Of a stretch of 28,426 bases of DNA, positions 11,333-21,883 are shown in pieces. A model generated the notes under the pieces. It saw nothing but the letters and a program-made list of their open reading frames with translations. It was not told the DNA's origin and did not search any database. Positions within the stretch are counted from its first letter, which is position 1. Each line of letters opens with the position of its first letter. Source of the stretch: Amoebidium appalachense (taxonomy: Eukaryota; Protista; Ichthyosporea); assembly GCA_963693365.1 (NCBI GenBank), contig CAVNZM010000009.1, positions 9,570,546-9,598,971 of the forward strand, read 5' to 3'. Made by a program: the position numbers and the translations under genes.

Positions 11333-11663
11333 GTGTGAGTTTTTATGTCACGTTTTACCCCTTTTCCTACGGGTGTCTGCTACACTAGCTGGCAATGTGA
11401 ACACTTTAGACTTCTTGTTGAATTCTGTTGGTCGTCACATTGAGTATTTATATGATTTTCACACAGTGTTCAGGTATCTCAGTATGCACTTGTTACTGGC
11501 TAACTCGTGAAGTTTTTATTGTCTTCTCAGTATGCCGTGCATACTTGCTTATCTTTCCGTCGAATAAATCCAGTCAAAAGCAAAAAAGAAAAAAAAAATT
11601 CAGTGAAGTCTGGAATTGGCACCCCCCCCCCCCCCCCCCCCCCCCCCCCCCCCCCCCCCCCCA

Positions 11664-11693
11664 ATATGGCCATATGTGTTGAACCGCGCAATT
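11664..11693 (+). repeat. Left inverted repeat (candidate TIR segment)
   Basis: atatggccatatgtgttgaaccgcgcaatt; 24/30 identical to the reverse complement of 21171-21200. Confidence 0.6.
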
Positions 11694-12320
11694 AGGGAGC
11701 GGCTGCGGGACTGTCTGCCATATTGGTCAATCCGATCAAGCCGTTTTTTGGAGGAGGGTAATGAAAATTGATTCAGACCTAGTTAGCCGGCGCCGCGGGA
11801 TCAGCCCATTATCCAATGATATTGTGATCAATAAAGCGGGGGCAAAAAAAGCATTGATTTAGGAATGTTATATGTGACCTGATAAAAGGCCATCTTTCGC
11901 ACCACATGTTCGAAAACATAAATGTATTAGCCAAAGGTTTGTATTATTTGCATAGCAAAGTTAATTACTTTATTTTTGCAATATATATATTTTTTAGGAC
12001 TGGTATTCAGTCTGCTTTAAACTTGGCAATTGTAAAGCTGAACAGTGTATCTTTGGTACAAGTCAAGATCTTGTACAACGTACATGTACATATATACAAT
12101 ATCCTGCTTGTGCAGTCAGAAATTGCAGTATTATCAATGTAATAATAAATTTTTAGGCAGCTGCATTGGAGAAATGTGCTGCTTTCAGTCGACAACCTAC
12201 ACGCAGCTCTGCCCTAGAAGCCCGGCGTGTTCCGATCAGCAGACGACGACGCAGCCTCGACTCGCGCTCGCCTCCAACCGTCCGGCCAGGCAGTAACGTT
12301 TATGTGAAAATATGCTTTAC

Positions 12321-13028
12321 CCTTTTCCAAGCCTTTCTCTGTTGGCTCTTCTTTTTCTTACCCCTTTTGCAATAGCCATACATGGTAAGATAAGGCTGGC
12401 AAGCGTGTTCCTCTTCTCCAATAAGCTGGGCCGTGTGCTCGTGTAGATGAAAGTCCAGATCCAGCTATGTAAACAAACAACTTCGGCCATGGGCTGAGCA
12501 CCAGTACGTGTACCGGGGCCAGCGTTATATATGTGCATGAGTGTATGCCACTAGTACAACATAGCTTTCACACTACCGTGACCGTGTACGACACACGCAC
12601 ACATGTAATATGCGTTCACAATCCAGGCTTTTAGTGTAAATGCACGTGCGTGCACAATGGCAGGGACAATCATATGCAGCCTTGCTGCGTTAGCATTACA
12701 CACATTCACTATTACGTGTTCCCTCTTCGATAAGCTGACTATGTGCATCACAACACCACTAGAAACACTTACGCTACTCCTTGTGCTGCTGTTGCTTCTC
12801 GCAGTGCCAATAGTACTACACGCTGGGCCTCGCATTTGGGTGTGGGGAAAATGCACATACGGGGTCAGGCATGGGCCGGGGTGGGGTGTGTTATCACGGC
12901 TTTATGCACGGCGCCGTTTTTGGCGTTCTCGACGCTCTTCCCGGTACTTTCTTCATAGACGCCACGCCCAGAGAACACAGAAGTTGCCCATTTGTGGTAC
13001 TGGCAAAGCCCGCAGCCTTTACATCCAC
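12321..13028 (-). CDS. Possible small spliced gene, divergent from the transposase
   Basis: Putative exons 13028-12898 (GCKGCGLCQYHKWATSVFSGRGVYEESTGKSVENAKNGAVHKA) and 12464-12362/12321 (LDLDFHLHEHTAQLIGEEEHACQPYLTMYGYCKR..) join in phase 0; the first donor (gtgata) is weak; start and stop not found. Confidence 0.3.
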
Positions 13029-13511
13029 CTGCATGCGCAGTTGGCAGCAGCAATCATGTGCATCCTTTTGTTTCAGTCTAGCTTCCAACTATATAACAGT
13101 TTCTCTCTGCCCGGCCACATGTTCGTCAATCATACAAACACGTTCCCTGTTTTACGTTGCTTATACTGCATTAGAAACCGCAAGCCGCCATTATGGATCC
13201 GATACCGTACAACACCACCACCTCTGTCGTTTGCAATTCACAGCATGCTAGTGTCTTTGATGCCATGCATGCTAGTAACAACATTTCGTACAACATATTG
13301 GTTCAATGCCATACTTTTTTCCTGCATATGGTCGTTTATATGCACACCCACATTGCAAAATCATTCTCTAGAGAGAAGGTATGCAGGCGGTTCTGGCCAT
13401 GTATTTGGAGCGGAAATGGTGGCCTTTGGGAAAGTTGCTAATACAACGGCATCCGGTTTGTGGTCGGTCTTCCTTGTGTGCTCTTTCGTTTTGTTGCTAT
13501 CTGTTGCAGCA

Positions 13512-20682: not shown

Positions 20683-21086
20683 CTGTCAGTCCGTCAAAAA
20701 TAAATAGGCTGGCACACAGCAAATTCCACGTTTAACACGACCAATCAATCGTAACTGGTTTGCACTCCTTGACCGAACATAAGTTTTGCGGATATAGTTT
20801 TCATTGGTTATAGGAGGAAGTCTTGCATCTGATTGACGACCTACAGAGGTTGGTAGATGCTTTTCACAACTTACTGTGTGCTGGCGAAGTATAAATTCGC
20901 TAATACCTTGAACAATGGTGCAGTAAACGGCAAAAAAATGTTTATAATAGTTATTTTTGGCTATAAACTTATAAATCTAAGTATTTCTGCCCTACTATAT
21001 TGTTTTTTGCTATTCACCCCATGGGCTTAGCAGAAACTCTATCCAGGGTCCGGGAGGGTACGCGGCGGCTATTGGTTGCCGGTCCG

Positions 21087-21163
21087 AATCGGCTCCTGAG
21101 AAGTCATATGAGCCGATTGGATGCGGGTATGCACATACGCCAAATGATTGGATGCGGGTATGC
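21087..21163. promoter_or_regulatory. Subterminal 18-bp direct repeats with CCAAT boxes upstream of the minus-strand gene
   Basis: gattggatgcgggtatgc at 21115-21132 and 21146-21163; 9-bp inverted repeat aatcggctc/gagccgatt at 21087-21118. Confidence 0.5.
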
Positions 21164-21170
21164 GCAGGTC

Positions 21171-21200
21171 AATTTCCCATTTCCACACAAATGGCCATAT
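21171..21200 (-). repeat. Right inverted repeat (candidate TIR segment)
   Basis: Reverse complement atatggccatttgtgtggaaatgggaaatt matches 11664-11693 at 24/30. Confidence 0.6.
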
Positions 21201-21883
21201 GCCCCCCCCCCCCCCCCCCCCCCCCCCCCCCCCGAAATGTTCCCGAACATAAAATCATCATTCTACGCCGTGTCTGTCAATATACCATGCTCACAAGTCA
21301 GTACTGCAATTATACTATTCTCAGTTTACTTCAAAGCATTCCCCCCCCCCCCCCCCCCTCCCCCTCCCCCCCCCCCCCCCCACCCCCCACCCCCCGGCCC
21401 TCTTCCCATTCCCTGCCCCCCCAAATATTTTATTTTATGTTTTTCATACTCGGTGACTAAAATCATGGCACCCGTGTTTTCTAGATATATTTCCTTTCAT
21501 TGTGTTCAACGTCTATGTGTGTGTGTGTGTGTGTACATGTTTGTGTGTGTGTAATGTGTGTGTATGGGCCAAGTGAAGGTTGTTACAGTATGTGTTTTTG
21601 TCTTCTTAGTTGTTTTTGTATTCTATTCGATTATTACTTTGTGTGTACATGTACATGTGGAAAAAAAACAAGTTACAAAAAAATTACCAATGACCACCGC
21701 CCAGCTTGAATCACCCTAGCTCCTAAGTGTAAAAAAATAATCATTATCAGCCACAAACCTTTCTAGTACACTCGCCCTAAATGTCATATTCACATTACTG
21801 AGTTGATTTACAGTAGTTGTGTTTCTTACTCTATTTCTTTCAACAACTGCCTGCCTATAGCTATTAAAACATTAAAATGTACA

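Follow-up and report, generated by a model that had tools for sequence, protein, structure and literature searches.

Whether a RAG1-type transposase can be paired with an accessory protein other than RAG2 is the question raised by a stretch of 28,426 nucleotides (nt) from the ichthyosporean Amoebidium appalachense (assembly GCA_963693365.1, contig CAVNZM010000009.1, positions 9,570,546 to 9,598,971 of the forward strand). This whole stretch is called the window, and all positions are counted from its first letter. A first-pass annotation made from the letters had placed at 11620..21233 a ProtoRAG-like transposon, with a RAG1-type transposase and a convergent partner gene unlike RAG2 between inverted repeats. 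We consider it fairly probable that 11663-21201 (9.5 kb) is one copy of a two-gene cut-and-paste transposon of the CMCT clade (Transib/RAG1-like), lying in a poly-C tract and carrying an accessory gene.

The features of the element are given below. Runs X9 and X10 were taken as transcript data solely on the GT-AG splice joints in their contigs, no run being recorded as RNA.

11622..11662, no strand: C-run of 41 nt adjoining the left end, likely the left half of a poly-C target
11662..11693, + strand: left terminal inverted repeat, taken from the window sequence (core 11664-11683; terminus at 11662 or 11663)
13512..13615, + strand: predicted transposase exon 1, a Cys-rich N-terminus running on into exon 2 (splice predicted)
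14150..14438, + strand: predicted transposase exon 2 (splice model)
14780..15689, + strand: transposase exon 3, its donor at 15690 confirmed by transcript contigs
16328..17722, + strand: transposase catalytic exon (transcript contigs, motifs and language model)
Landmarks of the catalytic exon, + strand: D 16330, D 16597, CxxC 16663, DPLH 16819, LNG 17011, H-x4-H 17330-17347, E 17405 or 17417
17284..17292, + strand: +1 frame break, CTT followed by two stops (CTT TAA TAG), seen in contigs of X9 and X10
18696..19349, - strand: partner exon 3; its stop codon occupies 18696-18698 and lies 973 nt from that of the transposase
19970..20060, - strand: partner exon 2 (transcript contigs)
20333..20625, - strand: coding part of partner exon 1, with the first ATG at 20625 and transcript contigs out to at least 20715
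21171..21201, - strand: right terminal inverted repeat (core 21181-21200)
21202..21233, no strand: C-run of 32 nt adjoining the right end, likely the right half of a poly-C target

Ends of the element

The inverted repeats that enclose both genes have a 20-bp core (11664-11683 versus 21181-21200) with 18 of 20 positions identical, and the extended arms (11664-11693 versus 21171-21200) match at 24 of 30 positions, as the first-pass annotation had reported. Self-comparison of the window revealed no second repeat pair around the transposase alone. A third copy of the arm consensus was absent from the window at up to three mismatches (0.01 expected by chance); since the consensus was built from the two arms themselves, this search bears only on the absence of further copies.

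Both arms abut a C-run, although the 38 C-runs of at least 10 nt in the window cover 896 of 28426 nt and offer few edges. The two outer C-runs lie on the + strand and are therefore direct rather than inverted repeats, so the coordinates 11620 and 21233 take in target DNA. The repeat pair first described is thus real, but the borders move inward to ~11662/11663 and 21201, leaving the outer 32-41 nt as direct C-runs. The simplest view is that the element likely inserted into one poly-C tract. Both flanks are GC-rich, and the length of a target duplication is unreadable inside the homopolymer. GC-rich targets and 5-bp duplications are a habit of RAG and Transib (PMC1131882), and CAC is conserved at Transib and RAGL (RAG-like) ends (PMC1131882, PMC7204232). 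Here the left terminus reads CAA or AAT and the right one CAT; a CAC at 11620 has no counterpart on the right side.

A RAG1-like transposase core

The RAG1-core motif series expected from the first reading is present in 16330-17722, in the order DGS, YDGTE, CSDW, CxxC, DPLH, LNG, ITPYIH-x4-H and QSLE..NE; we presume the assignment of each motif to residues of RAG1. Two stretches of exon 3 resemble what we take to be the nonamer-binding and dimerisation regions of RAG1. The zinc-ligand motifs that define the CMCT clade (PMC12730594) are found as C112-x2-C115, H167 and H334-x4-H339 (numbering of P0002), and by these motifs the protein is placed in that clade. Read through the frame break described below, the distance from the second D to the E is 269 or 273 amino acids (aa), compared with 253 in RAG1 and 206-214 in Transib (PMC1131882). 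The intron at 15690-16327 is removed in contigs of X9 and X10.

A feature search of the ESM Atlas ranked RAG1 clusters first (score 0.97, 198 of 256 features shared), and all 10 best family matches fell within one clan. The Pfam RAG1 match was sub-significant (E 0.028), and the 12 PDB matches of the C-terminal part were all to RAG1 or RAG1L, none being significant (E 0.47-1.3). Word-index protein searches with the core and the C-terminal part, a weak method for such divergence, returned no relative, and neither did locus scans of metagenome, viral and prokaryote collections with the core. Single-sequence structure prediction of the transposase was poor (predicted local distance difference test, pLDDT, 36.4), and fold searches matched helix pairs only. 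Weak Pfam and PDB matches of the core to designer pentatricopeptide repeats and to a toxin subunit were set aside as chance (E >0.1 per stretch).

A 335-codon open frame at 12609..13615 (+ strand) lies in frame with transposase exon 1 and might be an N-terminal extension or a long 5' leader. Its length was reached by none of 2000 simulated sequences, yet it has no codon-position bias of true exons, and it has no Pfam match. An X9 transcript contig includes 2556 nt upstream of 16327, long enough to take in this frame.

A frame break in the transposase transcript

The transposase had been described as an open protein of ~980 aa, which is not borne out: CTT TAA TAG at 17284-17292 ends the frame. 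With the best exon model (acceptor 14779) the product is 754 aa to the stop, or 898 aa if read through, and the break is the sole lesion; an alternative acceptor at 14710 brings a second +1 break in an A-run near 14800. The frame resumes in +1, and the last His pair and the catalytic Glu lie downstream of the break. One contig each of X9 and X10, covering 16327-17743 and 16327-17728, shows no differences and no gaps over 1417 and 1402 nt, and both contigs are joined upstream to the exon ending at 15689. Because these transcript contigs are identical to the window across the break, it is neither an assembly slip nor an intron of the major transcript; a 40-nt mini-intron around it was rejected, since the contigs run through unspliced.

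Frameshifted transposon copies are common, and in this copy the transposase gene is still transcribed but probably a dead allele. We regard it as improbable that the element is still autonomous, with the break serving as a programmed +1 "shifty stop" (UUU CUU UAA) by which transposase output is held down. Such a role would fit a break that, with the 14779 acceptor, is the only lesion in 898 codons of a transcript spliced in two runs. CUU_U before a stop is the shift site of bacterial release factor 2, and UUU_Y is prone to +1 shifts (PMC5009743). Among simulated +1 slips in these exons, 17 of 515 stopped at once and 2 of 515 did so after CTT. However, a one-base slip in the T-run alone yields the CUU_U context, a second break near 14800 is possible, and conservation of the site in a second lineage was not seen. 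The shifty stop is compatible with a two-gene transposon and alters only whether this copy is alive.

An orphan partner gene

The multi-exon gene that had been noticed pointing towards the transposase is confirmed as an open gene of three coding exons encoding 345 aa, with no internal stop. Its two GT-AG introns are spliced in contigs of X9 and X10, so that both genes of the convergent pair are spliced in transcript contigs; the X9 transcript contig omits a candidate exon near 19620-19700. Among 1,835,955,588 cluster representatives the last exon had a single match, P0001, a protein from an Amoebidium parasiticum transcriptome that differs from the partner model at one of the last 250 residues. 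Outside its own cluster, no relative was found among these 1.84 billion representatives, and a metagenome locus scan returned nothing.

That the partner does not look like RAG2 holds on all counts examined. Pfam gave no match, with neither kelch nor PHD appearing even at E up to 5, and the sequence had no match in the PDB. The 345 aa contain no GG dipeptide and no CxxC, so the hallmarks of kelch and of PHD, the pair by which RAG2L is identified (PMC7204232), are both missing. It is therefore very improbable that the partner is a RAG2-like kelch propeller that has diverged extremely, which would make the element a true RAGL transposon. The convergent layout would suit that idea, as would a length of 345 aa, near the size of a RAG2 core. 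BLAST is also known to find RAG2L genes poorly (PMC7204232). Besides the missing hallmarks, ends other than CAC argue against it, as does the predicted structure, with a long helix and mixed alpha/beta order.

That model was built from a single sequence (mean pLDDT 38.9), and fold searches with it gave no significant match. For exon 2 and the start of exon 3, a small SH3/KOW/Tudor-like barrel is predicted at low confidence. It resembles the SH3/KOW domains of eIF5A and EF-P (Foldseek probability up to 0.91, E 0.35; Z up to 4.2) and entries for Tudor and SH3 domains (Z 3.5-3.6). Language-model matches of the partner to serpin fragments (0.86, 54-73 shared features) were dismissed as chance.

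Partner variants and the right end

Contigs of four runs (X1, X2, X9 and X10) were aligned over 18632-21860. In all four, the longer partner and promoter pieces are 0.6-4.4% different from the window. Among the changes are a 15-nt deletion, an insertion of 11 nt, a palindromic insert of 31 nt and a 5-nt duplication, and at some sites two alleles occur side by side within single runs. The transposase transcripts in X9 and X10 are identical to the window. Contigs of the DNA runs X1 and X2 do not cover the transposase exon, a gap that was given no weight because some records are filtered out. Since transposase transcripts of the same runs equal the window, a strain difference is unlikely, and we infer several partner loci. 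The partner is thus not the single-copy host gene whose finding would have spoken against the first proposal: it occurs in several diverged versions, one of which reaches the right repeat. This version (X2 record 23, 2% diverged) spans 20883-21193 into the right arm. In X9 record 28 and X10 record 13, flank sequence (21245-21318/21331) is joined to ~140 letters foreign to the element end. Homology drops at the right end of the element, and further copies of the family likely keep the partner together with that end, though they may lack the transposase. None of four short probes taken from loose contig ends matched the window exactly, and three of them had no match within two mismatches either.

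We checked 15 listed differences in or next to exons, of which 13 were coding. Nine of these 13 were synonymous, compared with an expectation of 22-27% (p 0.0003-0.002). Because the coding differences are mostly synonymous, the partner looks like a selected part of the element.

Some variants are of interest in themselves. A 5-nt GC-rich duplication at 20338-20342, found in an X10 contig and in P0001, could have arisen by slippage or be a footprint left by an element that makes 5-bp duplications, and it accounts for the out-of-frame start of P0001. In the 5' leader of other versions (X1, X2, X9, X10), although not in the window, a 31-nt perfect palindrome is accompanied by an 8-bp duplication (20708-20715); the insert resembles a tiny miniature inverted-repeat transposable element (MITE) and is possibly a collapsed longer element. 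The right flank (21245-21331 and 21548-21860) is itself repetitive, with many variant contigs in all four runs.

Weighing the explanations

By analogy with Transib and RAG, the transposase of the proposed two-gene transposon would bind the ~20-bp inverted ends, excise the element and reinsert it into G/C-rich DNA, which here is a C-run and would thereby come to flank the element on either side. The 345-aa orphan would then probably be a selected accessory gene, acting in trans on chromatin or DNA. What it does there can be suggested only tentatively: judged from the predicted SH3/Tudor-like barrel, its most likely role may be that of a trans-acting helper that binds chromatin or nucleic acid, for targeting or for protection from silencing, and not that of a kelch-type cofactor of catalysis. 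A bolder version, which we think doubtful, is that the orphan attaches to the transposase or to its DNA and that efficient poly-C-directed transposition depends on it, convergent with the role of RAG2, with the +1 shifty stop perhaps adding a throttle. Movement as one unit and a preference for C-rich targets are likewise parts of the proposal that we infer.

Several observations weigh against this explanation. The ends have no CAC of the kind found in RAG and Transib, the transposase is broken in its own transcripts, and its class is assigned from motifs and the language model, with no significant sequence homologue; the recognition value in the ESM Atlas (2255) is slightly below the threshold (2300). 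One transcribed version of the partner is frameshifted by the 5-nt duplication, the synonymous count draws on 13 coding sites among 40 of 59 rows, and the read evidence for an element border concerns the right end only. With a pLDDT of 38.9 and Z of at most 4.2, the barrel likeness is a lead and not a result.

Two other accounts compete with the two-gene transposon. The element could be a single-gene Transib-like transposon with captured cargo, in which the partner is idle in transposition and any selection on it is host-side or predates capture. CMCT elements do passively carry and swap extra genes such as TET/JBP (PMC12730594), Transib works with no partner (PMC7204232), and partner versions seem more numerous than transposase versions here. 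Yet no host donor gene is visible, the partner has no outside relative among the 1.84 billion representatives, and differences among its versions are mostly synonymous, so that we consider mere cargo unlikely. Alternatively, the repeats and the partner could be a mobile family of their own, into or beside which the transposase inserted in this copy only. Such an origin would explain why variants are seen for the partner and the right end while the transposase transcript occurs in one version, and why the CAC terminus typical of RAG and Transib is missing. However, no second repeat pair surrounds the transposase alone, the GC-rich target suits a RAG/Transib-type enzyme, and contigs lose rare variants, so one version need not mean one copy; a separate transposase insertion therefore seems rather improbable.

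Other features of the window

A Copia-like retrotransposon with long terminal repeats occupies 22672-28426; its direct repeats (22672-23688 and 27298-28426) are 85-91% identical and enclose gag-pre-integrase and Pol beta-barrel domains. In the left part, a GC-rich near-perfect palindrome of ~370 nt (94.5%) at 1091-1463 is foldback- or MITE-like, and a 45-bp inverted repeat pair (84%) around ~245 nt at 4880-5214 is also MITE-like. A tandem array at 99-410 has a 44-nt unit in at least five copies. Scattered exon-like stretches with splice-like borders on the + strand of 1600-11600, some of them Cys/His-rich (e.g., near 11260-11475), could be parts of a multi-exon gene to the left of the element. 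Pfam searches of 19 frames (18 in the left part of the window and one in the right flank) gave nothing significant, and an Rfam search over the window gave nothing.

Significance

We found no published description of this element in a search that did not extend to Repbase, which may hold related families. The available main text of the Amoebidium genome paper does not mention Transib or Kolobok (PMC11244446), and the part of the supplement consulted from the RAG/Transib survey (PMC9435367) names neither Amoebidium nor Ichthyosporea. If both genes move and work together, RAG1-type transposases have gained a second protein more than once, and RAG2 would be one product of a process that has recurred, not a lone accident. 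The earlier proposal of a two-component RAG-like lineage with a different accessory protein agrees with a partner that is not RAG2, is not single-copy and differs mostly at synonymous sites, but a kinship closer to RAGL than to the wider CMCT clade is unsupported. Its suggested bearing on the origin of the RAG1-RAG2 pair survives as an analogy of independent second-gene capture and not as descent, because the termini have no CAC and the transposase copy is frameshifted.

Amoebidium is unicellular, related to animals and can be cultured, and it methylates the DNA of its transposons (PMC11244446), so that a helper role could be tested directly. A RAG1-like enzyme aimed at C-runs would, if true, merit attention in its own right, and so would a frameshift at a stop codon of a eukaryotic DNA transposase. 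Should the partner turn out to be passive cargo, what remains is a divergent Transib-like family that is new to the Ichthyosporea, of modest interest.

Comparison with known elements

The ProtoRAG-like architecture first proposed stands with respect to the convergent gene pair between inverted repeats and the RAG1-like core, whereas the hallmarks of RAG2L and the CAC ends are missing. RAGL transposons (ProtoRAG of amphioxus, TransibSU and AanRAGL of Aureococcus) likewise have a RAG1-like core with a long D-to-E spacing, a convergent second gene between short terminal inverted repeats, and partial copies in which the second gene stands alone (PMC7204232, PMC4411706, PMC9435367). Unlike in RAGL, the second gene here has no kelch or PHD hallmark and the ends are not CAC; the transposase has no significant similarity to solved RAG1 or RAG1L, and the duplication length is unreadable at this site.

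The element shares with Transib, including Subgroup I (PMC9435367), the DDE triad, the CxxC and H-x4-H ligands and a likely GC-rich target. However, Transib has one gene, while a second spliced gene lies inside the repeats here; its distance from the second D to the E is 206-214 aa (PMC1131882), in contrast to 269-273 aa in this element, and no CAC heptamer is present here. It should be noted that Transib ends and duplications vary (2026 preprint, 10.64898/2026.08.26.747230), that autonomous Transib copies are usually few (PMC4411706), and that solitary second genes between repeats are known for Transib and RAGL (PMC7204232). The element resembles Transib and RAGL in its proposed working but falls under neither definition, having no RAG2L and no CAC on the one hand, and two genes and a longer spacing on the other.

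Among the wider CMCT families, EnSpm/CACTA, ESTA and Plavaka have the C(2)C and H(3-4)H motifs, ESTA is also nearest to RAG1 by score, and EnSpm, ESTA and Plavaka carry extra genes (TET/JBP) inside their repeats (PMC12730594). Their termini (CAC..GTG, CATCA..TGATG, TGT..ACA) or TA duplications (PMC12730594) are not found here, and by Pfam the extra gene is not a TET/JBP dioxygenase. Kolobok Kol0, with a transposase and KolX, is likewise a two-gene DDE transposon with an accessory protein (PMC9587614), but its TTAA duplication and RR..YY ends are absent from this element, whose partner has no CxxC or KolX-like cysteine cluster and whose transposase has CMCT motifs. Extra genes are therefore already known in the wider CMCT clade.

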